A DNA stretch of 32,000 nt from Candidatus Poseidoniaceae archaeon (GCA_943789275.1 CALSTM010000003.1:600001-632000), one strand, 5' to 3'. Shown: positions 1 through 30,962, counted from the stretch's first letter. The notes: generated by a model from the letters alone, not told the origin. A program made the numbers and translations.

Positions 1-1101
1 TCCAACAAACAGGTTGCTGCAGGATACCAACACACCTGCGCCATTCTTGACAATGGTTCTGTGATGTGCTGGGGAGAGAATGGCCACGGACAGTTAGGCA
101 ATGGTGGAACAGGCGACGAACACATACCCGTTTGGGTTGATCTTGGCACGGATAGGACCGCCGTTGCGATCACTGCTGGATACAGACACACCTGCGCCAT
201 TCTTGACAACGGTTCAGTTTCCTGTTGGGGACAGGGAATTTTTGGGCAATTAGGTAATGGAGGAACATCACAACAAACCTCACCAACGCTCACCAGCAGC
301 CTTGGAACCGGCCGTACGGCCGTAGCGATCACTGCTGGATACAGTCACACCTGCGTCATTCTTGACAACGGTTCAGTTTCCTGTTGGGGAATCGGAAATA
401 AAGGACACTTGGGTAACGGAGGTACATCACAACAAAACTCACCAACGCTCACCAGCAGCCTTGGTACCGGCCGTACGGCCGTAGCGATTTCTGCTGGACA
501 ATATCACTCCTGCGCCATTCTTGACAGCGGTTCAGTTTCCTGTTGGGGGTATGGAATTGAGGGACAATTGGGTAACGGAGGTACATCACAACAAAACTCA
601 CCAACACTCACCAGCAGCCTTGGAACCGGTCGTACGGCCGTAGCGATTTCTGCTGGAGGCATCCACACCTGTGCCATACTTGACAACGGTTCAGTCTCAT
701 GTTGGGGGGAGGGAAGTAAAGGACGATTGGGTAACGGAGGTACATCACAACAAAACTCACCAACGCTCACCAACAGCCTTGGAACCGGTCGTACGGCCGT
801 AGCGATTTCTGGTGGAGCCAAACACACCTGCGCCATTCTTGACAGCGGTTCAGTCTCATGTTGGGGAGATGGAGCCATTGGCATACTGGGTGACGGGGGG
901 ACATCAGATCAACACTCACCAACGCTCACCAGCAGCCTTGGAACTGGCCGAACGGCAGTTGCGCTTGAGAATGGACACGCCCACACCTGTGCCATTCTTG
1001 ACGACGCTTCCATGAAGTGTTGGGGAAATGACAACAACAAGCAGTTAGGCAATGGAGCCACAGGCAGCACCGGCGACCCACCCGTTTTGGTATCAGGCAG
1101 C
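1..1101 (+). repeat. RCC1-type beta-propeller blades, at least 6.5 copies of ~159 bp (53 aa)
   Basis: CWGxGxxGQLGNGGTSQQxSPTLTSSLGTGRTAVAIxAGxxHTCAILDNGSVS recurs with a 159-bp period. This matches the RCC1 blade signature (G.LG ... HTCA.L ... G.V.CWG). The first blade(s) lie upstream of the window. Confidence 0.9.
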
Positions 1102-9196: not shown

Positions 9197-9217
9197 AACT
9201 CATTTAAGTGAGTTTTT
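9197..9217 (+). promoter_or_regulatory. TATA-like TTTAAG framed by a 6-bp inverted repeat (AACTCA-TTTAAG-TGAGTT) followed by a T-run. Candidate leaderless promoter or operator for gene 2, or alternatively a weak hairpin terminator for gene 1
   Basis: TTTAAG at 9203-9208 lies at -27..-22 from ATG 9230. The perfect inverted repeat is 9197-9202 / 9209-9214, and TTTTT is at 9213-9217. No Shine-Dalgarno-like GGAGG precedes the ATG. Confidence 0.3.
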
Positions 9218-9229
9218 CGACCTGCACTC

Positions 9230-9553
9230 ATGAGAGGGGACGCCGTAGGTATGCCTCTCTTTCAATCGGGCCACTCTGCTGTGTTGAACAGAAAGTCCAT
9301 CAAGTCAATTTGGCTTGCAGTTTTGATGGTTTCAATGTCGCTTTCTGTTGGCATCGTTGAATTGAACCGGACACCGTTGGTAGATGCCATTGGTGTAGCA
9401 AGTGTTGGAGCAGGCTGTGCGTTTATCACTCGGGCCAGCGGCGAGGCAATCTATGTCGATCCGGTCAACGGTTCGGATGCTTGGGACGGCACCTGGTCGT
9501 GTCCAAAAGCAACACTTTCCGATGCTCTGAACGACTCCATTTCAGAACGATGA
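9230..9553 (+). CDS. Gene 2 fragment 1: signal peptide plus start of the beta-helix lead-in
   Basis: ATG at 9230. The N-terminus has a basic region followed by a hydrophobic region (NRKSIKSIWLAVLMVSMSLSVGIV, h-region about 9308-9358). It ends ...AIYVDPVNGSDAWDGTWSCPKATLSDALNDSISER*, and the sense continues in frame 3 as NDEIVLYSGRYHENVTVDG. Confidence 0.8.
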   Translation: MRGDAVGMPLFQSGHSAVLNRKSIKSIWLAVLMVSMSLSVGIVELNRTPLVDAIGVASVGAGCAFITRASGEAIYVDPVNGSDAWDGTWSCPKATLSDALNDSISER

Positions 9554-11200
9554 AATCGTACTGTACAGCGGGCGGTATCACGAAAACGTCACTGTTGATG
9601 GCAAGGACAACCTTCTGATTCGTGCAGCCGATGGAGCCCGTGTTGTCTTTGACGGTACTCGAAGCATTACTGAAGATTTAGGTGGTGTTTGGGGTGCAGC
9701 CGACAGCGATGGAATCCAAGAAGTCACTTTGCCTGTTGATGGCTGGCAACTGTTCCTTGCCTACGAAGAACAAGTTCCTGCTCGATGGCCAAATGCCCAA
9801 TTCTCTGATGAAACGGTCTTCAATCGTTCGTACTGGGCTGAAGGCACATTGACCGGTTCAAACAATGCCTACACGCAAGGCTGGTTGACAGATGCTGGTC
9901 CTGAAACAGGTGTTCACACAGGCCTCAATGAAACAATTAACGCCACAGGCCTCGACCCTGAAGGGGCTATTGCGGTGATGAACCTCGGTTCGTTCCGCTC
10001 CAACAGCCGTGTCATCACCGATTGGAATTCGGCCAACGGGACGTTTGCATACGATGGCACTGGCGTAGGTTGGAAAACCAAGCATCACGCTTACTTCCTT
10101 GAGGGCAAGCGAGAACTCATCGATGTCGATGGTGAATGGTGGTTCAACAATGCAATCAACCGCCTGCATTACAAAACGCCAAGCGGGCAGAATGCAAACA
10201 ATTTGGATTTGCGTGTCAAGGTACAACCGTTTGCGATGAGCGTTGAAAACTCCGACGGCGTGACCATCCAAGGCCTCGATTTCTTTGGAACGACGGTCAA
10301 CTTCAACGAATGCGATGGATGCAGTTTCACCAATTCGACCCTCGAATATCCAAGCACCTCAAAGCGTGGATTGGGTATTGCCGGCGAATCAGAAGATGAC
10401 CGTTGGATGACACGTTTCTATCGTTCAACCAACTCGTTTGTCGACAACATTTCCATCACCAACACCGACGGTGGCGCTCTTGAATTCCAAGGGTCTGCGG
10501 GTCAGTCGCACAACAACACGGTGAACAATTCCTACTTCCACGCCATCGACTGGTCAGCTGCCGACCAGAAAGGACTGATGGTCACAATTTACGAGGGAGG
10601 CCGAGACATGTACTTCACCAACAACACCGTTCACTTGACCGGGGCTTCATCCGTACTCTCCATTGGTGATGCGCCCAAGGTGTTCTACAACGAAGTCTGG
10701 GATGTTGGGCATTTGCAAACTGATGGCGCTGTTGTTCAGATCATGCAAGGTGAGGCCCCAGGTGCTGAAGTTGCTCACAACTGGATTCATGACATCATCA
10801 AGTACGGTGCCCGGTTTGATGCACCCATTGGAGAAGCGGGAGAAGGCCGGAATGGAACCATGCATCACAATGTCATTTGGAATGTAACGGGCGGTTTGAT
10901 GGTTAAGGGGGACTATCACGACGTCCACAACAACACGGTGTTCAATTCCTCAGATGGCAAAAATGACATCATTGCCCTCACCGATGGCGAGATCAACAAC
11001 AAAAATTCGACGTTTCACCGCAATGCGGTGGATAAGATGGCCGACCATCGCTCAGGCTCATGGTCGCTTTATCCACTTCCCGCTGGGACGTATTGGAACA
11101 ACTGGAACGGCTACGTCAACACCACGGATACGGTTTGGAATCAACTGGTTGACCCTGCCAATTACGATTTCAGACCGAAGACCAACTCCCATCTTGACAA
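9440..11200 (+). other. Right-handed parallel beta-helix (pectin-lyase-fold-like) region
   Basis: PbH1-like turns recur: ISITNTDGGALEF, HNNTVNNSYFHAIDW, FTNNTVHLTG, AHNWIHDIIKYGARF, HHNVIWNVTGGLMVKG, VHNNTVFNSS. The lead-in is the typical ...DEIVLYSGRYHENVTVDGKDNLLIRA. Confidence 0.7.
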
Positions 11201-14200
11201 CATGAGTGCGGGTGCATACGATGCTGGTGTGAGCAATCCGTGGACGGCCGGTATTTCTTGGACATACACGACGCCCGATGCACCGGTCGAAGGGTGTATG
11301 CTCGATTATGCTGACAACTACGATGCAGACGCCACGCTATCAGACGGCTCGTGCTCCTTCGCATCGTATACGCCACCGGCCACGCTCGACCTCCGTCTCC
11401 ATCTTGACCCAACCAACAGCAGTTCCTACAGCGGCAGCGGCACCAACGTCGCTGACCTTTCTGGGTTCAACAACTACGGAACCGTCGCCGCCGCTGGACC
11501 GACATGGGACGGCGATTTCACACGCTTCTCCTACGATGGGGCGTGCACTGGCTCGACCCCGAACCTGGTTTGCGATGAGATCGAAGTTTCTGACTCAACG
11601 AGCTTGCGCCCGGGCGGAAACGACTGGTCGGTATCAGTTTGGTTCAACGCCTCAACGCACCAACACAGCGTGATACTCGGCGCCTTCGACGACGGAGGGG
11701 CAGCAGTGGATGTTGGATGGGCCATCCGAATGAGAGCATCAGGTGGCATCTATGCAAATGTGGGAACCACTTCCAACAATTCGGCCGCATGGACGTCAGA
11801 AGCATCCATCGATACGGACCGCTGGTATCACGTGGTCTTGGTTGCAGACCCGGGAAATACCCTCAGACTCTATGTTGATGGGCAAAACGTCGGAAGCGGT
11901 TCCTTGTCTGGAAGTGGAGCCCTGCGCAATGTAAGCAACAGCCTCTTCATCGCCTCCTACAACGGCGGTGAATATTCTCAGACCTTTGATGGACAAGTTG
12001 GTTCCGTCATGGCCTTTGCCGATGCACTCAACGCCACCACCATCAATCAAATCTACAATGCAAGCAAGGGTGTGTACAGCAACACGACCACCCTGTCCTT
12101 CCCTCAATCTTCACCGACCTTGCTCCTCGGTCAAACATACAGTTTCCCCATGACTGTCGCCAACGGTGAGATCACGACGTCCTATTCGCTCACGGGAACC
12201 TTGCCAAGCGGCATGAATTTCGAATCGAGCAACGGTACGATTTGGGGAACGCCAACGGCGGCTATGTCAACCACGAGCTACACCGTGACGGCCAACAACT
12301 CAGCCGGCACCTACTCGACCTCGTTCTCGTTGACATCGCAACATGCGGCACCGTACGATTTGGCCTACGCGCCAGAGAACATGACCCTTGAGAAGGGTAC
12401 GGCCATGACGACCAACACGCCGAGTGTGAGCGGGGGCGCCATCACATCTTGGGAAATCAACCCCTCCGTGCCAACTGGACTTTCCTTTAGCACCTCAACC
12501 GGTGCCATCAGTGGTACGCCTTACGTGTTGCAAACAACAGCAACCACGTACACGATATGGGCCAACAATTCAGGCGGAAATGCTTCAGCACAGGTCAACA
12601 TCACCATCAACGATGAAGTGCCGATTATTTCCTATTCGTATGATGACATTACCGGTACCAAGAGCGTGGCCATCAGCCCCCATTCTGGTCCAACTACGAG
12701 CGGTGGGACCATCACCTCATGGGAGATTTCACCATCACCAGGTTCTGCGTTCCACTTTAATTCCGCAAATGGCTACATCAGCGGAACTCCGGGGATTCTT
12801 CTGGCTAGAACCCAATACACCATTTGGGCCAACAATTCAGGTGGTTCGTCCGTTGCCTATGTCAACGTGACCATCAACGATGCAGCGCCGAACGCGTTGG
12901 GTTATTCTCCAGAAAATATGACACTCGAGAAGGATACAGCGATGACGCCGAACCTTCCTTCGGTCAGTGGTGGAACCATCACGTCATGGGAAATCAGTCC
13001 TTCTCTGCCGAGCGGTCTGACATGGGGGGCCTCGGATGGGAAAATCAGTGGAACACCCGCCGTTCTGCAAACGACGACGGTTACGTACACGATTTGGGCC
13101 AACAACTCAGGTGGTTCAGATTCCGCTCAAGTGAACATCACCATCAACGACCAACTCGCATCTGCAACCTATCCTTCAACCGTTGAAGTATCCAACGACC
13201 GAGCGATGACGACGGTCTCGCCGACCGTCACCGGTGGAGCGGTCATCTCGTGGGTCATCGTGCCTTCACTCTCCTCAGGCCTCAATTTCGGTAGTAGCAA
13301 CGGAAGCATCTGGGGCACGCCAACAGGATTGTTGGAGAACGCCACCTACACCGTCTATGCGAACAACAGCGGCGGTTCAACCAGCATTACCTTCACGCTC
13401 GGGCTCAACTGGACGCTGACGCCAAGTGCCGAGGGTGCCTTCATCACCCGCAACAGTTCCATTGCCAGCGACATCACGTGGGAATGGGATTACGATCCGC
13501 TTGAAGCTCAGAACCTTTCATTGGTGACTGGAGAATGGAACACCTGTGCCCTTGATAGCAATCAAAACGTGTTTTGTTGGGGACGAAACGGCAACGGTCA
13601 AATCGGCAACGGACAAACTGGAACGTCTGGTTGCGGTACATCAGGCCACAAGTGCAAGGACATTCCAACAGCAACGAACGATTTGGGCTCGGACGTGATC
13701 TCCCTTGCCTTTGGCCACCAGCATGCATGTGGCTTGCTTGACACTGGTGCCGTGAAGTGTTGGGGCCGAAACAATGCAGGGCAACTTGGAACCAGCGGTG
13801 GAGACAAGGATACGCCTCAAACCATCAATCTCGGGTCAGGGCGAACCGCTACGAGCATCTACGCCGGTGGCCACTACACCTGCGCCATCCTCGATGACGC
13901 CTCCGTCAAGTGCTGGGGGGAGAATGGGAACGGTCAACTCGGTATTGGTTCAAACTCGAACGCCAACACACCGACCACCATTAACACCCTCGGGTCAGGT
14001 CGCACGGCTATTTCTTTAGCAACCGCCATGAGTGCAGTCTGTGCCCTCCTCGATGACGGTTCAGTCAAGTGTTGGGGAGCCTCCGCAAATGGCCAGTTAG
14101 GCAATGGGGGTACCAGTTCAAATCTGAAGAGTCCACCTGCATCTGCAATTAACCTCGGAACCGGCCGTACTGCAAAAGCCATCACAGGTGGCGAATCCCA

Positions 14201-17200
14201 TTTCTGCGCCATCCTCGATGACGATTCCATCAAGTGTTGGGGCAATGGATTCAATGGGAAACTAGGAACCGGGACAACTTCCCACAGATCAACACCAACC
14301 TCAACCAGCGGAAGTTTCGCTACAGGTCGCTATGCGGTCGCCATTGACGCTGGCTACGATCACACCTGTGCCATTCTCGATAACGGCCAACTCACATGCT
14401 GGGGTTCTGATTCTGATGGCCAACTGGGTAACGGCGCTACCACGGGTACGAAATCATCGATTCAATCCACAACCGTCACTCTTGGGTCGGGACGAACGGC
14501 CATTTCGCTTTCTGCAGGTGGAGAGCACACCTGTGCGCAACTGGACAATGGACAACTCAAGTGCTGGGGGAATCGAGCAGACGGTCAAGTTGGCGACAAC
14601 GGGAATTTCAACAATCCGTCCGATCGCACGAGCCCTTCCTCCGTATCCAACAACAACCACGGCGGATATACCTATCTCAATACGGGCGTCATGCCTTCTT
14701 CCGCTGTTACTGGCGCTACCTGCGAGATCTCGCCTTCCCTCCCAACCGGCCTCAGTTTGACCGCCGGCACCTGCACCATCACCGGCACACCGACCGCTAC
14801 AGCCAGCAACGCCACCTACACCATTTGGGCCAACGTTTCCGGCACATCGTACAGCGGTCAAATCTGGCTTGAAGTCGGTTTGAATGCACCGGACATTTCC
14901 TATTCGTCTTCGACCTATACCTACACCAAGGACATAGAAATTTTCACGCTCAACCCAACCAACGTCGGTGGCGAAGTGACAACTTGGGCCATCAACGCAA
15001 CGTTGCCATCAGGCCTTACATTCGAGACCAGTAACGGTACAATTTGGGGCACACCGGACACGATTACGGCATCAACCACCTACACGGTATGGGCGAACAA
15101 TTCCGCTGATTCAGATTCCTTCACCATCACGTTCACCGTAAACGATGCTACTCCGAATTTCTATTACGGCAGCGCAAGCGGTGGAGGCGCACACACACTT
15201 GTCCTCTATCTGGATCAGACCATGAATCCACTCACGCCGACCCAGGCATCCGGGGGTGGAGCGATCACTTCGTGCAGCAGTTCACCATCACTGCCTTCTG
15301 GGCTGTCGTTGAGTTCAACATGTGTCCTTTCAGGAACACCTGATGCAACCGCTACCGGGGCCTTCTACACCATCACAGGAACCAACACAGGCGGTAGCGA
15401 TACAGCATCGTTGTACATCGAAATCCGCTCCTATGGTGGAACATTGAGCGTGACACCAAGCAACACTGAAGGCAGCGTGAACAGTTCCATCTCAGACATC
15501 ACGATGTCCTATGCGCATCAAATCAGCAACTACGGTTGGACATCTGGTGTAAGCAACACGACCACGACCCTCAGCAATAATTTCCTAACCGCAGGTGGAA
15601 CGCACCTGCTCGGCATTGATTCGGGCGATCAAGGCGAGATGGTCGTTGTCTATGCACATAACGATACGAGTTCCGCCAGTGGCACCTACAGCTTGGCCAT
15701 GATGTACCGCTGGGGCGGAACATGGACTGAAACCATTCTCGACACCGGCACAGATACGGGGTATCATCCATCGGTTGCCATCGATCGTCAGGGCGCAATC
15801 CACATCGCCTACATCGATGATCACAACGACGAACTTCGTTATGCTACCAATGCTTCAGGGTCGTGGGTCTTCACAACCTTGGGAAGTTCAACCTACGACA
15901 ACGATGACGGACGTGGAACGGCGATTGTCGTTCACCCAATTACAGATGCCGTTCACATTGTGACAACGATCAACGATAACACCTATCGTGATTTACAATA
16001 TCACACCAATGAAAGTGGTTCTTGGGTGAATGAGACCATCACCAATACGCTCTCGGATGAAGGTCATGACCCTGCTATGGCGATGGATGGCGACGGAAAT
16101 CTCCACGTCGCTTACTATTGCGACGATGGTTGTAGCGATTTGCGTATGTCCAGCCGAATCAATGGCGTTTGGCAAAACGAAACGGTTGCGAGCACCCTTA
16201 ACATTGGAAACGATCCTGACATTGCCATCGATTCACAGGGTACGATTCACATCGTGTCACAGTACCTCAATACCAAACGTATCTATCTCCATTCCGGTAC
16301 GCCAGGAAGTTGGACTGAACAAACAGGGCTCTCAGGAGGAAACGCTCACTGGCCTGTGGTATCGGTTGATTCAAATGATGCTGTCCACATCTCCTATCAT
16401 TTTGGAAACACACAAAAAGATGTGATGTACATGACCAACGCTTCTGGCTCTTGGTCAACAGCGTCCATGATTGAAGGATACGGTGGCTGGGGCAGTGAAA
16501 TGGTCATCGATGCCAACGATGACATCTTCATTCCGAACGTCGCTCCAGGAATAACAGAGATCCAATTGACCACAGTCAAGGGTTCAGGACAAGGTTTGAC
16601 AGCCCGTCCAACCTATGACATTGCACCGATGCTTCCTGACGGTTTGATCATGAACTGGCGTAATGGAACCATTTCGGGCACACCAACAGAAGCCCTTGCC
16701 AACACAACCTTCACCGTCACAGTCACCGCCCTCGGAACCACCACCACATCGGCCTTCACGCTCTTCATCACCGGCGCTCCCGGTGCTATCGCTTACAGCG
16801 ACATCTCAGGGACAAAGGGTACGGCCATCACCCCCGTCACACCGTCCATCACCACCAACGGCACGACCGGTAGCGTGACCTCGTGGACCATCAGTCCAAC
16901 TTTGCCAAGCGGGCTTTCATTCGGTACGAGCAATGGAACGATTTGGGGTACGCCAACAGTGGTTGTTTCCGGAGCGGTGTTCACGATTTGGGCGAACAAC
17001 TCGGTCGGGTCCAAGTCAACAACGGTCAACATCACTGTCAATGATGAAGCACCTGACATCTCTTACAATCCAGACTGGTTTGTTTTGACCAAGGGCACTG
17101 TCATGTCACCAACAGCGACACCAACCAATACAGGTGGTGCGATTCCATCGGGCATTGTCGACTCTGGAAGCAGTCTTGGTAGTCACACCTCAATCGCCCT

Positions 17201-19361: not shown

Positions 19362-19940
19362 TGTGGCTTACTTTGGTCAACAAACATCTTCTGGAATTTT
19401 CTCGCTCTATGCTTACAATGCTTCAAATGCGACGCTATGGATGGTTTCAGGGAGTAATGCTAATCGTGGTGTTGCTGTAACTATTGACGGTGTATTGTAT
19501 GGTAGTCGTGGTCTACAGTTCTCTTCCAGGTGGCTCTACACTCTGGGCGCACAACCCTAACAACGGAACCTCGTGGGTAATTGCTCCAAACATTGCTCCA
19601 GGAATTAATCAGGCTTTTGAGATAGCCGGAACGCTGTATTACAGGGGCGGTTTATCTTCCAGCCAAGAAGTATGGGCGTATGAGCCGACCAATACGACGG
19701 CATGGAAGGTCACGGACATCACGCTCCCTCAATCCGGCCTCTTCTTTGCCCTTGGTGACCTCATTTACTTTACAGGCAGCAACGCCACGACCAGTGGTGT
19801 TTGGGCGCACAGCACTTCCAACCATTCGACCTGGTTTGTGAGCAATCCATTCTCAAGCAACGCCGCCACCGCGGTTGCTGTTGTGAACGGTACGCTTTAC
19901 TTGGGTAATTCTGGAATGGCTGCTCATCAGCCAACCTCCA
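18640..19940 (+). other. Kelch-like ~9-blade propeller region spanning three reading frames
   Basis: Each blade has ...(Y/F)F.G...(L/V)(W/H/Y)(A/G)(H/Y)N.SN.T.W: LHGYGIANNTLW, LYGYGMENETVW, LHGHNLSNGTTW, TWAHNISNGTSW, LYAYNASNATLW, LWAHNPNNGTSW, VWAYEPTNTTAW, VWAHSTSNHSTW. Confidence 0.6.
19225..19560 (+). CDS. Gene 2 fragment 3 (frame 1): two kelch-like blades. Only about 19330-19515 is judged genuinely coding
   Basis: AGAQVIGDVAYFGQQTSSGIFSLYAYNASNATLWMVSGSNANRGVAVTIDGVLYGSRG fits the blade pattern of the flanking frames. Confidence 0.7.
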   Translation: MCLWQSSVTVVPTVVRHGRTTSATGHLGASQSYMMHTTAGAQVIGDVAYFGQQTSSGIFSLYAYNASNATLWMVSGSNANRGVAVTIDGVLYGSRGLQFSSRWLYTLGAQP

Positions 19941-21943
19941 TCAACTACCGGACGAACACGGGTGGACCCGTCACCTCGTGGGCGATCAACGCCAGCCTGC
20001 CGAGTGGCCTTTCCTTCAGCACGACCAACGGCAGCATCTACGGCACGCCGACCGAGCTGTGGACACAAACGTCTTACATGGTCTGGGCCAACAACAGCGG
20101 TGGCTCAACCGTGGCCTACCTCAACATCACCGTGGTTGACGAGTTACCAACGCTTTCGTATTCTCCAGAGAACTTGACACTGACCAAGAATCAGACAAGC
20201 ACCGATTTGCCACTGACTGCAACGGTCACGGGTTCGGGGACGATCACGTCCTGGGCCATCAGCCCAGTACTGCCTAGCGGTTTGTCCTTTGGAACGAGCA
20301 ACGGAACGATTTGGGGCACTCCGACGGTCTTGCAGACCAGTCCAGTGACCTACACCGTTTGGGCGAACAACAGCGGAGGTTCATCCTCAGCCACGGTCAA
20401 CATCACTGTCAACGACGAAGCGCCTGACATCTCTTACAATCCAGACTGGTTTGTTCTTACCAACAATACGGCCATGTCTCCGATTGCAACACCGACGAAT
20501 TCTGGTGGTGCGATTCCGTCAACCGTCATCGATTCAACTGGCAATGTTGGAGAAGATACTTCCATCGCCATTGATTCAAATGGAAACAGGCACATTTCCT
20601 ACTACGACGAAACTGGTTCCGACCTCAAGTATGCGACGGATAAAACTGGTTCTTGGGTCACCGTTTCCGTTGACACAACAGGGTTTGTGGGAACTGACTC
20701 TTCTATCGCCATCGATTCCAACGATGCAGTCCACATTTCCTACTATGATTACACCAATAGCGACCTCAAGTACGCCACTTGTTCAAGCGGTTGCACAATC
20801 GCAAGCAATTGGGACGATGTCTCCGTTGACACAACAGGGTTTGTGGGAACTGACTCTTCTATCGCCATCGATTCCAACGATGCAGTCCACATTTCCTACT
20901 ATGATTACACCAATAGCGACCTCAAGTACGCCACCTGTTCAAGTGGTTGCACAACCGCAAGCAACTGGGACGATGTTTCCGTTGAAACAACAGGTGTCGT
21001 GGGATCTTTCACTTCTATCGCCATCGATTCCAATGATGCAGTCCACATTTCCTACTATGATTCCACCAATAGGGATCTCGAGTACGCCACCTGTTCAAGT
21101 GGTTGCACAACCGCAAGCAATTGGATCACTACTTCGGTTGAAACGACAGGTGTTGTGGGATATTACACTTCAATCGCCATCGATTCAACCGATGCAGTCC
21201 ACATTTCCTACTTCGATAATACCAATGATGACCTCAAGTACGCCACATGTTCAAGCGGTTGCACAACAGCAAGCAATTGGGTCGATGTCTCCGTTGACAT
21301 AACAGGTCATGTGGGACGTTACACTTCCATCTCCATCGATTCTAACGATAATGCCCACATTTCCTACTATGATACCACCAATAGCGATCTCAAGTACGCC
21401 ACCTGTTCAAGCGGTTGTACAACCGCAAGCAATTGGGACAAGGTCTCCGTTGACACATCAGGTAGTGTGGGATATTACACTTCAATCGCCATCGATTCCA
21501 GCGATACTATCCACATTTCCTACTTCGATAATACCAATGACGACCTCAAGTACGTCGTTCTCGATTCTTCTTCGAATATGTATGGCTATTCCATCAGTCC
21601 AGACCTGCCTGCTGGATTGAGTTTGAACTTTACAAGTGGCGAAATCTCAGGAACGCCAACTGCACTATCAACCAACACGACCTATACTATTACAGTGAGA
21701 AACAGTGGTGGTGTGAACACGACCACGATCACAATCGAGGTTCTCGACCAGTTGCCGACCATTGCTTACTCGCCAGAGAACTTGACACTGACCAAGAATC
21801 AGACCAGCACCGATTTGCCGCTGACTGCAACGCGTCATGGGTTCGGGGACAATCACGTCCTGGGCCATCAGCCCAGCTTTGCCAAGCGGTCTTATCCTTT
21901 GGAACGAGCAACGGAACGATTTGGGGAACGCCGACATCATTGA
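19484..21943 (+). CDS. Gene 2 fragment 4 (frame 2): remaining kelch-like blades, He_PIG units, propeller C
   Basis: Sense runs from about 19515 to 21832. The last ~37 codons of the track ORF (RHGFGDNHVLGHQPSF...) are out-of-frame read-through after a C insertion at 21833, judged against the paralogous units at 18381 and 20221. Confidence 0.9.
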   Translation: MTVYCMVVVVYSSLPGGSTLWAHNPNNGTSWVIAPNIAPGINQAFEIAGTLYYRGGLSSSQEVWAYEPTNTTAWKVTDITLPQSGLFFALGDLIYFTGSNATTSGVWAHSTSNHSTWFVSNPFSSNAATAVAVVNGTLYLGNSGMAAHQPTSINYRTNTGGPVTSWAINASLPSGLSFSTTNGSIYGTPTELWTQTSYMVWANNSGGSTVAYLNITVVDELPTLSYSPENLTLTKNQTSTDLPLTATVTGSGTITSWAISPVLPSGLSFGTSNGTIWGTPTVLQTSPVTYTVWANNSGGSSSATVNITVNDEAPDISYNPDWFVLTNNTAMSPIATPTNSGGAIPSTVIDSTGNVGEDTSIAIDSNGNRHISYYDETGSDLKYATDKTGSWVTVSVDTTGFVGTDSSIAIDSNDAVHISYYDYTNSDLKYATCSSGCTIASNWDDVSVDTTGFVGTDSSIAIDSNDAVHISYYDYTNSDLKYATCSSGCTTASNWDDVSVETTGVVGSFTSIAIDSNDAVHISYYDSTNRDLEYATCSSGCTTASNWITTSVETTGVVGYYTSIAIDSTDAVHISYFDNTNDDLKYATCSSGCTTASNWVDVSVDITGHVGRYTSISIDSNDNAHISYYDTTNSDLKYATCSSGCTTASNWDKVSVDTSGSVGYYTSIAIDSSDTIHISYFDNTNDDLKYVVLDSSSNMYGYSISPDLPAGLSLNFTSGEISGTPTALSTNTTYTITVRNSGGVNTTTITIEVLDQLPTIAYSPENLTLTKNQTSTDLPLTATRHGFGDNHVLGHQPSFAKRSYPLERATERFGERRHH
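20525..21570 (+). repeat. Propeller C: 7 blades (~156 bp / 52 aa) with a CSSGC insertion
   Basis: G(T/S/Y)(D/F/Y)(S/T)SIAIDSNDAVHISYYDYTNSDLKYATCSSGCT(I/T)ASNWDDVSVDTTGFV. A 156-bp period was verified between 20687 and 20843. Confidence 0.85.
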
Positions 21944-22036
21944 TGACGCTCAAGACGTTCACAATTTCGGCGAGCAATAGCGGCGGTTCAGTCAATGCAA
22001 CCGTTAACATCACTGTCAATGATGAAGCCCCTGATA
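21834..22036 (+). CDS. Gene 2 fragment 5: one He_PIG unit split over frame 3 (21834-21893) and frame 1 (21895-22036)
   Basis: VMGSGTITSWAISPALPSGL, then an extra A at 21894, then SFGTSNGTIWGTPTSLMTLKTFTISASNSGGSVNATVNITVNDEAPDI. It overlaps track ORF 21940..22140, whose tail is out of frame. Confidence 0.7.
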
Positions 22037-23383
22037 TCGTATTCTCCAGACTGGTTTGTTCTCACCAACAATACGGCCATGTCGCCAACGGCTACACCAA
22101 CCAATTCAGGTGGTGCAATCCCGTCTGGAATTATTGCTGAACCGTCGCAAGTTGGCTCTCAGTATTCCGAGGGGAGATACAATTCTATTGCCGTTGATTC
22201 GAATGGCGTCGCACATGTTGTTTATTTTGGCAACTATAATTCACAAACGTTGTATTACGCAACCAATGCCAACGGTTCATGGGTTACGACTGTGCTCAAG
22301 AATCAGAATGGTATAACCAACGGAGCATCAATTGTCATTGACTCTAACGATACCATCCACATCAGTTATTCACACAGGTTTAGCCAATACAGTATGGGGA
22401 ATAACCTCTATTACTCGACTTGTTCTTCATCTTGTTCATCTGCATCATCATGGAGTGGTGGTTTGGTCGTCGGAGGTGGGTATTACAACGATATTGCGAT
22501 CGATACCAACGGTACATTGCACATCTCTCACTGGACAGGTTCCTCGCTCCAGCATTCGACCTGTTCCTCTTCTTGTTCAACAGCATCGTCTTGGACCACA
22601 ACCTCGGTTACTTCGGTGACCCAACAGATGAGGATTTCAATGACAACCGATTCCAACAACAGTATACACATCCTTTACTCAGAGGGCTACCCAACAAGAG
22701 ACCTCAACTATGCGACCTGCTCTTCTGGATGCACATCGTCATCATCGTGGTCTACAGTTGAGCTCAATGCTTCCAGCACTTCCACTTTTATAGGGGATCA
22801 ATCCATTGCTGTTGATTCAAACAACGGTATTCACATAACATATCAATTCAATACTAACCTGACCTATGCGACCTGTTCTTCTTCATGTACATCAGCATCA
22901 TCATGGACCAATACCACGGTTCCCCCTGTCAAGGCTTTATACGGCCTCGGGGAAATCGCCATTGATTCCAACGACCATCTCTACATCTCGTATGCAAAGG
23001 GTTCTTCCAATGCAGCATCTAAACTAACCTATGCGACCTGTTCTTCTTCATGTACATCAGCATCGTCGTGGACCAACACCACGTTTGACACAAATGGCGG
23101 TAATCAACGGTCAATGGCTCTTGATTCCAACGACCGTGTGCACATCTCCTATCACTCAGGTAGTACGGATAAATCCCTTAGGTACCTCGCAGTTGAACCA
23201 TCATCGATTGTTTATGCTTACTCCATCAGTCCAGCCTTGCCTGCAGGGTTAAGTTTGGAAATCAGCACAGGTGAGATCTCAGGAACGCCGACTGAGTTGT
23301 CGACCAATACAACATACACGATTACGGTACGCAATGCGGGGTGGCACAAATACGACGACCATCACCATCGAAGTCAACGATGA
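21995..23383 (+). CDS. Gene 2 fragment 6 (frame 2): split He_PIG unit with nested propeller D
   Basis: Sense runs from about 22037 (SYSPDWFVLTNNTAMSPTATPTNSGGAIPSG...) to about 23340 (...TYTITVRNAG). The track-ORF tail WHKYDDHHHRSQR is out of frame after an extra G in a G-run. Confidence 0.9.
   Translation: MQPLTSLSMMKPLISYSPDWFVLTNNTAMSPTATPTNSGGAIPSGIIAEPSQVGSQYSEGRYNSIAVDSNGVAHVVYFGNYNSQTLYYATNANGSWVTTVLKNQNGITNGASIVIDSNDTIHISYSHRFSQYSMGNNLYYSTCSSSCSSASSWSGGLVVGGGYYNDIAIDTNGTLHISHWTGSSLQHSTCSSSCSTASSWTTTSVTSVTQQMRISMTTDSNNSIHILYSEGYPTRDLNYATCSSGCTSSSSWSTVELNASSTSTFIGDQSIAVDSNNGIHITYQFNTNLTYATCSSSCTSASSWTNTTVPPVKALYGLGEIAIDSNDHLYISYAKGSSNAASKLTYATCSSSCTSASSWTNTTFDTNGGNQRSMALDSNDRVHISYHSGSTDKSLRYLAVEPSSIVYAYSISPALPAGLSLEISTGEISGTPTELSTNTTYTITVRNAGWHKYDDHHHRSQR
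22130..23200 (+). other. Propeller D: 7 diverged blades with a C-S-S-(S/G)-C insertion
   Basis: NSIAVDSNGVAHVVYF, GASIVIDSNDTIHISYS...YYSTCSSSCSSASSW, NDIAIDTNGTLHISHW...HSTCSSSCSTASSW, ISMTTDSNNSIHILYS...YATCSSGCTSSSSW, QSIAVDSNNGIHITYQ...YATCSSSCTSASSW, IAIDSNDHLYISYA...YATCSSSCTSASSW, SMALDSNDRVHISYH. Confidence 0.75.
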
Positions 23384-23478
23384 GGTCCCGACAATAGCGT
23401 ACTCGCCGAACGATTTGGACCATGACCAATAACACGGCAAGCAGCGACCTTCCGCTCTCGCCGACCATCACAGGTTCG
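23343..23478 (+). CDS. Gene 2 fragment 7: short frame-3 (23343-23420) and frame-1 (23422-23478) pieces of He_PIG units
   Basis: GTNTTTITIEVNDEVPTIAYSPNDLD, then an extra C at 23421, then MTNNTASSDLPLSPTITGS (the start of track ORF 23422..23649, the rest of which is out of frame). Confidence 0.65.
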
Positions 23479-24470
23479 GTGAAATCACGTCGTGGGCCAT
23501 CAACGCCATCTTGCCAGCGGTCTGTACCTTCGAGACCAGCAACGGTACCATTTGGGGAACACCGACCGAACTGTGGACGCAAACGGCCTACATGGTCTGG
23601 GCCAACAACAGCGGTGGGTCCGCCGTCGCCTACCTCAACATCACCGTAGTTGACGAACTACCAACGATTGCTTACTCGCCGAACGATTTGGATTTGACCA
23701 ACAACACGGCAAGCAGTGACCTTCCGCTCTCGCCGACCGTGACAGGTTCTGGTGAATTTACGTCGTGGGCCATTAACGCAAGTCTTCCGAGCGGACTTAC
23801 CTTCGAGACCAGCAACGGAACCATTTGGGGAACACCGACCGAACTGTGGACGCAAACGGCCTACATGGTCTGGGCCAACAACAGCGGTGGGTCCGCCGTC
23901 GCCTACCTCAACATCACCGTAGTTGACGAACTACCAACGATTGCTTACTCGCCGAACGATTTGGATTTGACCAACAACACTGCTTCGAGCGATCTTCCAC
24001 TTTCGCCGACCGTGACAGGTTCTGGTGAATTTACGTCGTGGGCCATTAACGCAAGTCTTCCGAGCGGACTTACCTTCGAGACCAGCAACGGAACCATTTG
24101 GGGCACACCGACCGAACTGTGGACGCAAACGGCCTACATGGTCTGGGCCAACAACAGCGGTGGCTCAAGCGAGGCCTACCTCAACATCACCGTAGTTGAC
24201 GAACTACCAACGATTGCTTACTCGCCAAACGACTTGGATTTGACCAACAACACGGCAAGCAGTGACCTTCCACTCTCGCCGACCGTGACTGGTTCTGGTG
24301 AATTTACGTCGTGGGCCATTAACGCAAGTCTTCCGAGCGGTTTGACTTTCGGTACGAGCAACGGAACAATTTGGGGCACACCGACCGAACTGTGGACGCA
24401 AACGGCCTACATGGTCTGGGCCAACAACAGCGGTGGCTCAAGCGAGGCCTACCTCAACATCACGGTCAAC
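23379..24470 (+). repeat. 4 x 273-bp tandem He_PIG units (the first unit carries four indels)
   Basis: ELPTIAYSPNDLDLTNNTASSDLPLSPTVTGSGEFTSWAINASLPSGLTFETSNGTIWGTPTELWTQTAYMVWANNSGGS(A/S)(V/E)AYLNITVVD. Units start at 23379, 23652, 23925 and 24198. Antisense shadow ORFs recur at 23658/23931/24204. Confidence 0.9.
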
Positions 24471-26573
24471 GATCAAATGCCAACGCTTTCGTATTCACCT
24501 GCCAACCTCACGCTCTACAAGAACACCGCCAGCAGTGATTTGCCGTTGAACGCCACGCTGACCGGTCCTGGAGAGATCACTTCGTGGACCATCGCACCCG
24601 GTTTGCCGAACGGTTTGACCTTTGAGACAAGCAACGGAACGATATGGGGCATTCCAACACAGCGTATGACCACCACACAGTTCACGGTCTGGGCCAACAA
24701 CAGCGGTGGGTCCGCCGTCGCTTACCTCAACATCACGGTGCTCCACGAAGCACCGATGTTCAGCTATTCATCCTACAACTTGACGCTGGTCAACAACACG
24801 GCCATGACTGCAATGGGTGCGCCGATTACGGGTGGCGACGTCACATCGTGGGAAGTTGAACCGGCTTGGCCAACAGGTCTCTATTTAGGGTCCTTATATG
24901 GAACAATTTGGGGAACGCCAACCGTGGTTCAAAACATGACCATGTACCAGATTTGGGGCAACAATTCAGGTGGCTCTCACTCTGTCTTCATCAACATCAC
25001 CGTCGATGACCGAGCACCTTCGTTCACCTACAACCCAGAAAACCTCACCCTGACCAACAACACGGTCAGCACTGACCTACCGCTTGTACCAACGGTTTCG
25101 AATACTGGAGATGCTCCAACAGGTTGGGTCTTGATGGGCACCTTGCCTGCAGGTCTCAACTTTGGCACCAACAACGGAACCATTTGGGGTACGCCAACCG
25201 AGCTATGGACGACCACAAATTACACCGTATACGGGAACAACACCGGCGGTTCGTTCAATGTGAGCATCAACATTACGGTCAACGATCAGATGCCAACGCT
25301 TTCGTATTCTCCAGAGAATTTGACATTCTACAATGATACTGCCAGCAGCGACCTTCCACTTTCGCCGACCATCACCGGTTCAGGCGAGTTTGTATCATGG
25401 GCCATCAGTCCATCAGAGCCAAGCGGTCTTTCCTTTGATACTTCGAACGGAACGCTCAGTGGAACGCCAACTGAACTGCTGACACGTACAATGTTCACGA
25501 TTACGGCGACCAACACCGGTGGAACAGCAACAGCGTACATCAACATCACAATTGTTGACCAAGTGCCGACGATTGCGTACTCGCCAAACGACTTGAGCAT
25601 GACCAACAATACGGCGAGCAGTGACCTACCGCTTTCGCCAACCATCACTGGTTCAGGTGAGGTTGTGTCTTGGAGCATCAGTCCATCAGTGCCAAGTGGT
25701 TTGGCCTTTGATACTTCAAACGGAACGCTCAGCGGCACGCCGACTGAATTGCAGACACGGACAATGTACACCATCACAGCAACAAACACCGGTGGGACAG
25801 CAACAGCGTACATCAACATCACAATTGTTGACGAAGTGCCGACGATTGCGTACTCGCCAAACGACTTGAACATGACCAACAACACGGCAAGCATTGACCT
25901 TCCACTTTTGCCGACCATCACCGGTTCAGGCGAGTTCGTATCGTGGGCCATCAGCCCATCAGAGCCAAGCGGTCTTTCCTTTGATACTTCGAACGGAACG
26001 CTCAGCGGAACGCCGACTGAATTGCTGACACGGACAATGTACACCATCACAGCAACAAACACCGGTGGAACGGCAACAGCCTACATCAACATCACAATCG
26101 TTGACGAAGTTCCGACGATTGTCTACTCACCAAACGATTTGAACATGACCAACAACACTGCCTCGCTCGATCTTCCGCTCTCGCCAACAGTGACCGGTTC
26201 TGGCGAGTTCGTGTCCTGGGCCATCAGCCCTTCAGTGCCAAGCGGTTTGGCCTTCAGCACCTCAACAGGTGTGCTCAGTGGAACGCCGACAGAATTGCTG
26301 ACACGTAGTATGTTCACGATTACGGCGACCAACACTGGTGGCTCAAGTATCGCCTACATCAACATCACCATTGTTGACGAGGTGCCGACCATTGCTTACT
26401 CGCCAAACGACTTGAGCATGACCAACAATACGGGGAGCAGTGACCTTCCACTTTTGCCGACCATCACCGGTTCAGGTGAGTTGTGTCTTGGGCCATCAGT
26501 CCAGCAGTGCCAAGCGGTCTTGCGTTTGACACCTCGACAGGTGTGCTCAGTGGAACGCCGACTGAATTGCTGA
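23481..26573 (+). CDS. Gene 2 fragment 8 (frame 3): ~11 He_PIG units (track ORF 23511..26573)
   Basis: Sense runs from GEITSWAINA... (23481) to ...PTITGSGE (26480). The track-ORF tail LCLGPSVQQCQAV... is out of frame after loss of one G: ggtgagGttgtg at 25657 versus ggtgagttgtg at 26475. Confidence 0.9.
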   Translation, partial: EITSWAINAILPAVCTFETSNGTIWGTPTELWTQTAYMVWANNSGGSAVAYLNITVVDELPTIAYSPNDLDLTNNTASSDLPLSPTVTGSGEFTSWAINASLPSGLTFETSNGTIWGTPTELWTQTAYMVWANNSGGSAVAYLNITVVDELPTIAYSPNDLDLTNNTASSDLPLSPTVTGSGEFTSWAINASLPSGLTFETSNGTIWGTPTELWTQTAYMVWANNSGGSSEAYLNITVVDELPTIAYSPNDLDLTNNTASSDLPLSPTVTGSGEFTSWAINASLPSGLTFGTSNGTIWGTPTELWTQTAYMVWANNSGGSSEAYLNITVNDQMPTLSYSPANLTLYKNTASSDLPLNATLTGPGEITSWTIAPGLPNGLTFETSNGTIWGIPTQRMTTTQFTVWANNSGGSAVAYLNITVLHEAPMFSYSSYNLTLVNNTAMTAMGAPITGGDVTSWEVEPAWPTGLYLGSLYGTIWGTPTVVQNMTMYQIWGNNSGGSHSVFINITVDDRAPSFTYNPENLTLTNNTVSTDLPLVPTVSNTGDAPTGWVLMGTLPAGLNFGTNNGTIWGTPTELWTTTNYTVYGNNTGGSFNVSINITVNDQMPTLSYSPENLTFYNDTASSDLPLSPTITGSGEFVSWAISPSEPSGLSFDTSNGTLSGTPTELLTRTMFTITATNTGGTATAYINITIVDQVPTIAYSPNDLSMTNNTASSDLPLSPTITGSGEVVSWSISPSVPSGLAFDTSNGTLSGTPTELQTRTMYTITATNTGGTATAYINITIVDEVPTIAYSPNDLNMTNNTASIDLPLLPTITGSGEFVSWAISPSEPSGLSFDTSNGTLSGTPTELLTRTMYTITATNTGGTATAYINITIVDEVPTIVYSPNDLNMTNNTASLDLPLSPTVTGSGEFVSWAISPSVPSGLAFSTSTGVLSGTPTELLTRSMFTITATNTGGSSIAYINITIVDEVPTIAYSPNDLSMTNNTGSSDLPLLPTITGSGELCLGPSVQQCQAVLRLTPRQVCSVERRLNC

Positions 26574-26923
26574 CACGTAGCATGTTCACGATTACCGCAA
26601 CCAACACCGGTGGAACGGCAACAGCGTACATCAACATCACAATCGTTGACGAACTTCCAACGATTGCATACTCGCCGAACGATTTGATTATGACCAACAA
26701 TACTGTTTCGAGTGATCTTCCGCTTTCGCCGACCATCACCGGCTCTGGCGAGATTGTATCGTGGGCCATCAGCCCATCAGAGCCAAGCGGTCTTTCCTTT
26801 GATACTTCGAACGGAACGCTCAGCGGAACGCCGACTGAATTGCTGACACGTACAATGTACACCATCACAGCAACAAACACAGGTGGGACAGCAACAGCGT
26901 ACATCAACATCACCGTTCTTGAC
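25287..26923 (+). repeat. 6 x 273-bp tandem He_PIG units (roughly 80-90% identical by eye)
   Basis: (Q/E)(V/L/M)PT(I/L)(A/V/S)YSPNDL(S/N/I)MTNNTAS(S/I/L)DLPL(S/L)PT(I/V)TGSGE(F/V/I)VSW(A/S)ISPS(E/V)PSGL(S/A)FDTSNGTLSGTPTEL(L/Q)TRTM(F/Y)TITATNTGGTATAYINITIVD. Units start at 25287, 25560, 25833, 26106, 26379 and 26651. Confidence 0.85.
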
Positions 26924-29173
26924 ATCATCCCAGAAATCTCCTATTCTCCGCCAGAAATGGTCCTTACAAACAACACTTCGATGGCCTATTGGTCTCCACT
27001 CAATGTCGGTGGGCCCGCTCTTTCATGGAGTATTTCTCCAGAACTTTCTCCAGGACTGTTGTTCGATTCCTCCAACGGTACAATTTCGGGACTACCAACC
27101 GAGGTTGCCCCACTGCTCAACTATACAGTCTCAGCGACCAACAGTGGAGGCACTTCCGAGTTTAGCATCAACATCACCGTCGTTGGAAACGTTCCTCTCA
27201 TTGAATATGTGCCGAGTGACATTGTTTTACTCAACAATTCGAGCATACTTGATTTGTTACCGCTTTCTACCGGTGGAGCTGTGTTGGAATGGTCAATTAC
27301 TCCGGAACTGCCGCTCGGCCTTACGTTTGACAACACATCTGGTCGCATGAACGGTACGCCTGTTGAAGTGAGCAGCCAAACTCAGTATTCAGTGACGGTC
27401 ATCAACGATGACGGATTTTTGACTGTTATGGTCAACATCACCGTTGAAGACCTTGTTTATGAGACCGCTCAAGGCGTTTTCAATGCCCTCAATAAATCGA
27501 TGATTGAATCAATCGAGCCGCTTTCTTTCATCAGCGATTCAGTGTACGAGATTCACCCTGCTCTTCCAACGGGTCTTTCGATTGGACCGTTGAACGGTAC
27601 CATTTGGGGAGTTCCGAGTGAAGTCATGGAACTGAAGAGTTACACTGTGTATTCGAATTCAAGTTTGTTCAATGACACCTTCATCATAATGCTGCGAGTT
27701 CTTGAAGACTCAGACAACGATTCCTTACCAGACGCTCTGCCTGTTGGATATGATTTGATCGGAGAACTCATTGAAGATTTAGATGATGATGACGACGGTT
27801 ATTCTGATTTGCTTGAAGACGAGTGTTTGAGCGATTCGCTTGACGATAATTCGATGCCCGGCGACCTTGACGGTGATTCCATTTGTGACCCGCTGGACAA
27901 CGACGTTGACGGTGACGGACTGTTCAACCTCTTGGAAGATAGCAGTGGGAACTACACATCAATCATTGATACGGGGACGAACCCACTGCTTGCAGATACT
28001 GATGGTGACGGCGTTTGTGATGGCCCACTCATCCCTGCGAACGGAGGCTGCACAATGGGACCTGATGCCTTCCCGAATGACCCTTCAGCATTTGCCGATA
28101 CCGATGGAGATGGTATGCCCGACGAAATGTTTGGAAATTCAACCAGTGAACCACCGTTGATACTTGATTTGGATGATGATAATGATTTGTGGACCGACCT
28201 CCAGGAAGAGGAGTGCGGAACTGACCATCTTGACCAATACAGTGTACCTGAAGATGCAGACGGTGACGGAATCTGTAACAACCTCGATGAGCGAATGGAT
28301 CTTTCTTTCAATCTCACCTATCCGATTACCAACCGAACACTCCTCTTGGATGAAGAGATGGAGCCTTTGCTTCCGAACATCACTGGAATTGGGGAAATTG
28401 AGACTTGGGAAATTGTTGGGGAATTACCTGATGGTTTGACCTTTGGATGGAGTCCAGCTCGAGACGCCCTTCTGGACGGAAGCATCCGAGGTACACCTAC
28501 TGAACTGATGAACGCCACTGATTTCGTCATTTGGGCGAACAATTCGGGGTACAGTCGATCGTTCATGATTACACTTGAAGTTTCATATGAATACTATCCA
28601 GAGGATAACAATGCGACACCGCAGGTATTGGGCTACATCTTGTGCCCGCTCTTTTTGTTGGTTTTGGTTGCCGTGGCTATGCTACTTGTTCCAAAGAAAA
28701 AAGTTGTCTTCAGAGATGCTCAGCCACAAAACACGTCCTCTCGTCCGAAGTTCAAGAGCGGTGCTGGAACTCGGGAGGACCCGTTCATTATCCAGACGCT
28801 TACCGGCGTTGAAGCCAGAACGTTTGTGCTTAGCAAGGAATCAATCACGACAAATGAAGTCTCACCTTCGAGCGTGTTTGACATTCGGGATGAAAACGAG
28901 GTCGAGAACGATGGCCGATTTAAAATCCTCAATCACCACAATGAATCTTCTTCTGTGGAAGAGGAATGGTCACCGGTTTCAAGACTCAACTCTGACCAAG
29001 AAGGTGTTCTCATCTACCAATTGGCTTTTGATGACCGTGACTCTGCTACGGTTCGTGAAAGTTCTTACACGACTTTGTTCAAGGTAGGGAACGAATCCGT
29101 GTATTTCCAATGGACGGTCAAGATGAAACCGAAGAAGAACCCGAGGAAGAAGTCGGGCAAGAAATCAAAGTGA
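26483..29173 (+). CDS. Gene 2 fragment 9 (frame 2): He_PIG units, TSP3-like module, TM anchor, cytoplasmic tail; true C-terminus
   Basis: It begins mid-domain (VSWAISPAVPSGLAFDTSTGVLSGTPT) and ends at TGA 29171-29173. It is collinear with gene 1 nt ~6240-8490. Confidence 0.92.
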   Translation: MSWAISPAVPSGLAFDTSTGVLSGTPTELLTRSMFTITATNTGGTATAYINITIVDELPTIAYSPNDLIMTNNTVSSDLPLSPTITGSGEIVSWAISPSEPSGLSFDTSNGTLSGTPTELLTRTMYTITATNTGGTATAYINITVLDIIPEISYSPPEMVLTNNTSMAYWSPLNVGGPALSWSISPELSPGLLFDSSNGTISGLPTEVAPLLNYTVSATNSGGTSEFSINITVVGNVPLIEYVPSDIVLLNNSSILDLLPLSTGGAVLEWSITPELPLGLTFDNTSGRMNGTPVEVSSQTQYSVTVINDDGFLTVMVNITVEDLVYETAQGVFNALNKSMIESIEPLSFISDSVYEIHPALPTGLSIGPLNGTIWGVPSEVMELKSYTVYSNSSLFNDTFIIMLRVLEDSDNDSLPDALPVGYDLIGELIEDLDDDDDGYSDLLEDECLSDSLDDNSMPGDLDGDSICDPLDNDVDGDGLFNLLEDSSGNYTSIIDTGTNPLLADTDGDGVCDGPLIPANGGCTMGPDAFPNDPSAFADTDGDGMPDEMFGNSTSEPPLILDLDDDNDLWTDLQEEECGTDHLDQYSVPEDADGDGICNNLDERMDLSFNLTYPITNRTLLLDEEMEPLLPNITGIGEIETWEIVGELPDGLTFGWSPARDALLDGSIRGTPTELMNATDFVIWANNSGYSRSFMITLEVSYEYYPEDNNATPQVLGYILCPLFLLVLVAVAMLLVPKKKVVFRDAQPQNTSSRPKFKSGAGTREDPFIIQTLTGVEARTFVLSKESITTNEVSPSSVFDIRDENEVENDGRFKILNHHNESSSVEEEWSPVSRLNSDQEGVLIYQLAFDDRDSATVRESSYTTLFKVGNESVYFQWTVKMKPKKNPRKKSGKKSK
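27700..28300 (+). other. Thrombospondin type-3-like acidic Ca-binding repeats (paralogue of 7040-7640)
   Basis: DSDNDSLPD, DLDDDDDGYSD, DLDGDSICDPLDNDVDGDGLFN, DTDGDGVCD, DTDGDGMPD, DADGDGICN. Confidence 0.75.
28625..28693 (+). other. Single transmembrane helix (anchor) of gene 2
   Basis: VLGYILCPLFLLVLVAVAMLLVP is followed by KKK. Confidence 0.8.
28694..29170 (+). other. Post-TM (predicted cytoplasmic) module of gene 2, ending in a Lys-rich tail
   Basis: KSGAGTREDPFIIQT...SVYFQWTVKMKPKKNPRKKSGKKSK is homologous to gene 1 nt 8073-8490. It lacks the K/A repeat and the HhH domain. Confidence 0.5.
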
Positions 29174-29185
29174 GGGGTCCCCTCA
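29171..29185. repeat. 15-bp perfect palindrome TGAGGGGTCCCCTCA containing both convergent stop codons
   Basis: TGA (29171-29173) ends gene 2, and TCA (29183-29185, i.e. TGA on the minus strand) ends the DUF3592-like gene. The inverted repeat is certain; a terminator role is speculative. Confidence 0.9.
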
Positions 29186-30958: not shown

Positions 30959-30962
30959 TCAA

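Follow-up and report, generated by a model that had tools for sequence, protein, structure and literature searches.

A frameshift-broken gene of about 6,650 codons for a cell-surface protein of a Poseidoniales archaeon, with clustered indels that are probably assembly errors

A 32,000-nt stretch of DNA of a Candidatus Poseidoniaceae archaeon (GCA_943789275.1, CALSTM010000003.1:600001-632000), called the window below, was analysed on its own numbering, which is used for all coordinates. Positions 9230-29173 on the plus strand are occupied by a string of five large and several small open reading frames (ORFs). This string is one frameshift-broken gene of ~6,650 codons for a cell-surface protein of a Poseidoniales (Marine Group II) archaeon. 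It is one gene because the restored frame has no internal stop, its two transmembrane (TM)-like segments are placed at the ends, and relatives bridge all the junctions.

The stop-free segments of the plus strand alternate among the three frames. They lie at 9212-9550, 19481-21940, 21947-23380 and 26480-29170 in frame 2, at 9531-19358, 21825-21977, 23253-23429 and 23433-26570 in frame 0, and at 19192-19557, 21541-22137 and 23398-23646 in frame 1. Corrections of 1-2 bases at ten sites, the junctions J1 to J10, yield a 19,941-nt frame of 6,646 codons with a terminal stop only. The off-frames of the restored gene carry 2.4% and 4.5% stops per codon, and the chance of such a stop-free path is ~10^-88. 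Peptides spanning the junctions in the restored frame include ..ALNDSISNDEIVLY.., ..YDAYPAGAQVIG.. and ..GSGEFVSWAISPAV...

A hydropathy scan with a 19-residue window and a threshold of 1.6 found only two TM-like segments in the restored protein, at residues 27-45 (9308-9364) and 6468-6486 (28634-28690), and detected no signal-like start in any internal ORF. The whole restored protein therefore shares one targeting set of an N-terminal signal and a C-terminal anchor. These results bear out the original prediction, made from the sequence alone, of one ~19.9-kb gene cut by at least 10 frame disruptions, with a signal-like N-terminus only in the 9230 ORF and a TM anchor only in the 26483 ORF. Its further claim that the domain in progress carries over at the ORF boundaries also stands, as all the joins it quoted are visible in the three-frame read-outs. 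We looked for relatives with the same ORF boundaries and with fragments having their own start and signal, and found none.

The homologues show frame continuity across all ten junctions. Relatives are cited here by handle (L for loci and P for proteins), and the best genome matches are the Poseidoniaceae metagenome-assembled genome (MAG) B_MB87 (L009) and the Marine Group II genome CM001443 (L010). The N-terminal homologues with a source name come from Poseidoniales, Poseidoniaceae, Poseidonia or Thermoplasmatota MAGs. J1 is read through by L083 (with a k141_ contig name of short-read style), L010 and twelve proteins at 80-91% identity. For most of 150 listed library representatives, the beginning of the frame-0 segment aligns ~50-100 residues into the protein, and no protein ends at the J1-induced stop among 118 N-terminal matches.

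Across J2 and J3, a 283-aa restored segment gives one tblastn high-scoring segment pair (HSP) each in L009 (97%), L010, L084, L085 and L086 but is split in the window into three abutting HSPs, each in a different frame. J4-J6 are bridged by P0126, which covers all three sites in one frame, by L062 and by L009, and J6 also by L003. J7-J9 are in a single frame in L003, L009 and L062, and J10 is read through by P0119, P0131, L009, L062 and L003. L003, read on its reverse complement, has a single 1,435-aa frame that runs over J6-J10 and includes a scaffold gap of 100 N. L009 has a single stop-free frame of 5,073 aa with the same modules, and its collinear blocks are 57-83% identical to the restored protein.

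Some searches added little. Those for a full-length giant orthologue were uninformative, as the protein libraries list nothing above ~1,400 aa or above 1,958 aa, unlike the gene-position index that holds products of more than 4,000 aa. A chimeric junction query of the protein collection was swamped by He_PIG repeats, and its bridging proteins were only 82-87% identical. A protein-guided metagenome scan returned three frame-continuous relatives at 64-73% identity, too distant to judge the indels. The exact J2 DNA pattern, with or without the extra base, had no match in the JGI metagenome contigs, and the exact-type J1 pattern had none in viral contigs. The fragment ORFs at 9230-9553 and at 21995-23383 had no exact match on record.

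The indel positions were refined by alignment to near-identical relatives and to paralogous units in the window, and ~13 events were resolved (the ten junctions plus extras) with a net gain of three bases. J1 is an extra G at 9545 (TCA-G-AAC) that shifts frame 2 to 0, and the base is missing in L083 and L010, both of which are in frame. J2 is an extra A at 19336 (CATACC-A-CAGC), shifting frame 0 to 1 and missing in L009, which is 98.9% identical over 181 nt. J3 at 19510-19515 is complex: relative to L009, GG is extra and one base is lost, a net +1 that shifts frame 1 to 2.

J4 (an extra C at 21833), J5 (an extra T at 21890) and J6 (a 2-nt deletion at ~22039, TTT to T) were all placed by comparison with L062, L009, L079, L082 and the in-window paralogue 20138-20313. 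J7 is an extra G in the G-run at 23339-23342, J8 one extra base at 23420/23421 and J9 one missing base at 23477/23478. A hidden compensated pair follows at 23508 (-1) and 23525 (+1), where six codons are garbled from ..SLPSGLTF to AINAILPAVCTF; it creates no stop and is invisible in the ORF map. J10 is one missing base at 26481 (GAGTT-GTG), shifting frame 0 to 2. C is the usual base there in the relatives and the in-window paralogues, GAGTTCGTG, apart from one copy whose alignment puts a G earlier, and the L003 protein has GEFVSW, ..GSGEFVSWAISP... By this comparison the lost base fits better as C or T than as G.

The single-base calls of the original prediction survive unevenly. Its extra C at 21833 and extra G at 23339-23342 are right, and several of the others are off by a few bases or in the wrong base. 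It left open whether the breaks are real, a question on which the present evidence leans towards assembly error. Its extra A at 21894 is replaced, from the relatives, by the extra T at 21890 with an identical protein outcome. Its extra C at 23421 and missing G at 23478 are +1 and -1 events that we place at 23420/23421 and 23477/23478, and its missing G at 26481 is correct in position but not in base. The count of at least 10 disruptions agrees with the ten junctions and now rises to ~13 events including the 23508/23525 pair, which it had not seen.

From 5′ to 3′, the first coding segment (9230..9544, frame 2) begins with ATG at 9230 and holds the signal-like stretch, the beta-helix lead-in and a capping helix. 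The second (9546..19335, frame 0) carries the beta-helix head to ~11330, Laminin_G_3 at ~11580-12044, He_PIG, an RCC1-like propeller at ~13605-14648, propeller-like 'DSNDxVHISYYD' repeats and the start of a blade region; tandem 141-nt units occupy 17185-18113. The third (19337..19512, frame 1) contributes 58 codons within the blade region, and its tblastn HSP corresponds to residues 81-138 of the 283-aa test segment. The fourth (19514..21832, frame 2) contains the remaining blade region, He_PIG and propeller-like 156-nt repeats at 20666-21554.

A patch with the three indels J4-J6 (21833..22041) follows, with a net change of 0, and the long ORFs flanking it are both in frame 2. The next coding segment (22042..23341, frame 2) has a fourth propeller-like block and one He_PIG domain. 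It leads to a second patch (23339..23525) with five indels, J7-J9 and the hidden pair, as judged against L003, L009, L062 and L082. The segment at 23526..26480 (frame 0) is a tandem He_PIG array with 273-nt units at 23400-24463 and 25336-26913. The last one (26483..29173, frame 2) comprises He_PIG, Asp-rich repeats at ~27680-28282, the TM anchor at 28634-28690, the tail at 28691-29170 and the stop. By eye, the Asp-rich stretch has DxDxDG-like motifs (e.g. DTDGDGVCD and DADGDGICNNLD) with a thrombospondin type-3-like, calcium-binding look, and Pfam gave no such calcium-binding family in it at E<=0.1.

Pfam assigned many He_PIG domains, an RCC1-like propeller and Laminin_G_3 to the restored protein. 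In all five large fragments He_PIG (PF05345) exceeded its gathering cut-off of 24 bits, with scores of 274, 75, 34, 234 and 130, and these Ig-like domains number ~40 in total. The propeller-like repeats are 47-52 residues long. Pfam gave no family for the head (E<=0.1), the blade region or the tail. A profile of the head built from 55 homologues matched the GH120 xylosidase XylC (3vst) at 4e-21, spanning the J1 position, as well as a 'parallel beta-helix repeat protein' and BT_1002 (5mqp).

An AlphaFold2 model of the homologue P0004, 84% identical to the window head, has a mean predicted local distance difference test score (pLDDT) of 83.5, and exceeds 90 across roughly residues 55-690. The predicted fold is a right-handed beta-helix, with 5mqp (1.7e-17) and then 3vst (1.6e-10) as the best Foldseek matches. 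Around the J1 equivalent the model has a helix at 82-88 and strands at 94-97 and 100-102, with a pLDDT above 90. This places J1 after the capping helix and before the first strands of the modelled beta-helix.

There are 202 N-x-S/T sequons in the restored protein, which is a membrane-anchored surface protein and probably heavily N-glycosylated. It consists of an N-terminal signal, a beta-helix head, a very long stalk of LamG, RCC1, propeller-like and He_PIG domains, one TM helix and a cytoplasmic tail of ~160 residues. The stalk would hold a carbohydrate-binding or -cleaving head far from the cell. Judging by the domain content, the head may serve to attach the cell to algal or particle polysaccharide or to process it. 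Adhesion-related genes have been discussed as widespread in Poseidoniales (Rinke et al., PMC6461757).

The gene upstream (1..9144, plus strand) is intact, encodes at least 3,047 aa and runs off the window start. Its product has RCC1 and He_PIG in the ectodomain, a TM segment and a homologous tail, and was used within the window as a check on the architecture of the broken gene. It is a paralogue, with 42% identity to the restored protein in a 2,170-residue alignment that takes in the TM anchor and the tail motif (..SVYF.WTV..). Its 3′ end has a KA-rich repeat (42-nt units, 8620-8822) and HhH-like sequence. It also contains repeats of 273 nt (5.2 copies, 99%) at 3258-4679 and of 261 nt (3.1 copies, 98%) at 5198-6002. 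These tandem repeats exceed the repetitiveness of the broken gene, yet the upstream gene has no frameshift. The genes downstream encode a DUF3592-like protein, a TPMT methyltransferase and an enoyl-CoA hydratase.

The last 5.2 kb of the window is 99.98-100% identical, gap-free, to independent metagenome contigs from several marine samples. Samples in which the flanks are matched at 100% are ERR4352467, ERZ27295558, ERZ27295470, ERZ807184 and ERZ23491120. From 26685 on, the identity to the independent metagenome contigs L001-L004 is 99.87-100%, and the same-strain independent contigs end at 26685-27374. L003 is 99.87% identical over 26685-31221 and only ~80-87% upstream, where it apparently has fewer repeats and an N gap. 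Its breakpoint at 26685 suggests strain-level recombination or a repeat collapse within the He_PIG array.

The nearest relative shifts along the gene, from L062 (99.6%, 17085-18208) to L009 (98.5%, 18600-20299), L082 (94%, 20226-23830) and L003 (99.87%, from 26685). On this sequence comparison the gene is a mosaic, which natural recombination or a mixed-strain consensus would produce. In L083 and L082, the gene with the beta-helix N-terminus directly follows the ribosomal protein L11-L1-L10 cluster, whereas its upstream neighbour in the window, L007 and L008 is a further giant gene. The gene content of the island therefore varies.

As for the origin of the breaks, the indels are probably errors of the assembly consensus or of its polishing, to which we assign a probability of roughly 70%. 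They would be stretches that polishing left untouched or corrected wrongly in a long-read or mixed-strain assembly, and the organism would make the full-length protein. None of the 13 indel events is common to any relative, even at a local identity of 97-99%. The damage is all indels, with zero nonsense codons in 6,646 codons. The indels are clustered, as 8 of the 12 neighbour distances are <=200 nt, which was never reached in 200,000 random placements. A comparison with L009 over 18600-20299 shows 98.5% identity with 25 substitutions, and the three indel events that also separate the two sequences are all on the window's side.

In the restored frame, 12 codon differences from L009 at 18600-20299 are synonymous and 8 are non-synonymous, and at 23388-26111 the counts are 81 and 26. 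Since they are mostly synonymous, the sequence beyond the breaks has been evolving as a coding one. The damage is thus indel-only and private to this assembly, with the restored frame under purifying selection, as looked for in an artefact. The remaining 12 kb of the window is frameshift-free. Also on the side of error, no protein with the J1-induced end turned up among the 118 N-terminal matches, nor did either of the two fragment ORFs looked up. The window also runs through a 1.4-kb array of tandem 273-nt repeats that are 99% identical, which suggests a long-read or clone-based assembly.

Other assemblies have similar breaks elsewhere. In L007 and L008 ('_pilon' contigs of ~2 Mb), L082 and L062, large contigs whose names ('pilon' or 'contig_') are of long-read style, the homologous gene is also split into abutting frames, but at sites not homologous to those of the window. 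L062, for instance, changes frame near its own positions 9876 and 10241-10267, and the window has no break there. The contigs with short-read-style names (L003, L083-L086 and most genome-contig matches) read through. The frame-switch count per locus gives a crude trend, as it undercounts (4 in the window) and may include true gene boundaries.

Gene-fragmenting indel errors in long-read genome and metagenome assemblies are addressed by proovframe (bioRxiv 10.1101/2021.08.23.457338) and Kastor (PMC12007338). The likeness to such errors is that private small indels split a conserved ORF into abutting frames and that reference-guided correction restores the full-length protein. The difference is that the errors here are found in one gene in ~200-nt patches and not contig-wide, with the source technology only inferred.

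Several points weigh against an assembly origin. The closest independent assembly covering a junction is 98.9% identical, so the indels could be strain-private and real. The errors are confined to one gene, for which a uniform error model gives (19.9/32)^13 or ~0.002, and the equally repetitive upstream gene is error-free. Most indel sites are not homopolymers. At least J1-J3 have no close in-window paralogue, so multi-mapping of polishing reads is no explanation there. The long- or short-read status of the window and of the comparison assemblies is taken from contig names and repeat content only, and the protein function from domain content only.

The alternative that survives best, though we consider it unlikely, is that the indels are real and mark a very recent pseudogene in this strain. 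The giant surface protein could, for example, be one that the strain can do without or that is selected against, encoded in a hypervariable island, with the other indels following the first frameshift. All the disruptions being in one gene with the neighbouring 12 kb clean, the rarity of homopolymer runs among the sites, and the strain-variable, mosaic nature of the region (L003 being 99.87% identical downstream of 26685 and ~85% upstream) are in its favour. However, substitutions normally far outnumber indels, so several stops would be expected in a decaying gene, but the thirteen indels here are accompanied by no nonsense codon. The differences from L009 are mostly synonymous, the clustering in ~200-nt patches is not predicted by neutral decay, and no event is shared with any relative. 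The marks of decay, nonsense substitutions and a ratio of non-synonymous to synonymous rates (dN/dS) near 1, were not seen in the restored frame, which speaks against a pseudogene older than the divergence from L009 but not against a younger one.

If the indels were genuine, a strain of a globally distributed Poseidoniales population would have just switched off a 6,646-residue protein by a clustered burst of indels, which is rather improbable. Viruses or grazers using the protein as a receptor are a possible driver of such a switch-off. It is even less likely that the cell still decodes the gene across genuine shifts. Should the indels be genuine, the locus would be a natural snapshot of the earliest decay of a giant gene.

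A variant of the assembly-error explanation, that the sequence is a chimeric consensus of co-occurring strains with the indels at the points where haplotypes merge, is very improbable. The best relative does change along the gene from L062 through L009 and L082 to L003, but natural recombination among strains gives the same mosaic equally well, and the J2/J3 patch does not mark the boundary of a near-identical block but is found midway along it.

Still less credible is that the ORFs are separate, independently expressed genes. A possible ATG, GTG or TTG start can be pointed to for each fragment. Yet the fragments start inside folded domains without a signal sequence, J1 interrupts a confidently modelled beta-helix between its capping helix and its first strand, the signal is only in the first fragment and the anchor only in the last, and the relatives are single-frame at every boundary.

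Programmed ribosomal frameshifting, transcriptional slippage or phase-variation switches can be set aside as nearly negligible, for although the events sum to +3 and the first and last segments are both in frame 2 (1 in 3 by chance alone), they are of mixed sign and size (+1, +2, -1 and -2) in local sequences that differ between sites, share no slippery motif by eye (no motif scan being run), include no run longer than GGGG (J7) or TTT (J6) and mostly no run at all, show at the indel sites no long homopolymer or short tandem repeat tract as in phase-variable loci, and are conserved at no site in any relative.

With assembly error as the preferred explanation of the breaks, the restored protein can be set beside known ones. 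The giant He_PIG/RCC1 surface proteins of Poseidoniales (L009, L008 and the upstream paralogue) have the same modules (He_PIG, RCC1-like and propeller-like repeats), an N-terminal signal and a C-terminal TM anchor. The module order is a mosaic. L009 has no beta-helix head and a different tail, and the window copy is longer (6,646 aa) and bears the indels.

The original prediction overstated the case in placing the restored protein among the very largest of prokaryotes. Described prokaryotic proteins reach well above 10,000 aa. L009 has its 5,073-aa frame and L008 has products of 4,466 and 4,378 aa, all of these being lower bounds as both are cut by the ends of the fetched loci, and proteins of 4,000-5,000+ aa are common in this clade. 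The gene belongs to a kind common in Poseidoniales, and its size is not exceptional there.

The head shares its fold with beta-helix glycoside hydrolases (GHs) and polysaccharide lyases, such as GH138 BT_1002 (5mqp), GH120 XylC (3vst) and phage capsule depolymerases, and the profile matches over the N-terminal cap and the first coils. The sequence identity is only ~13%. Here, unlike in those enzymes, the domain forms the tip of a membrane-anchored protein exceeding 6,000 residues.

Long arrays of Ig-like repeats presenting a terminal binding or enzymatic module are also found in halomucin of Haloquadratum, the SPEARE protein of Nanohaloarchaeum and bacterial RTX adhesins. The window protein has a C-terminal TM helix and a cytoplasmic tail instead of type I secretion and outer-membrane retention, and the likeness is one of architecture. 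The same head-on-stalk design is present in the relatives and the neighbouring paralogue, so the system is not novel in kind.

Annotation of the locus should replace the 'hypothetical proteins' of the five large and the several small ORFs by one gene of ~6,650 codons, flagged as frameshifted or of low quality. The giant surface-protein genes of Marine Group II shatter easily in assemblies, which skews gene counts, pseudogene estimates and protein-size statistics. The restored protein is an example of how uncultured archaea may hold a glycosidase- or lyase-like beta-helix head thousands of residues from the membrane.

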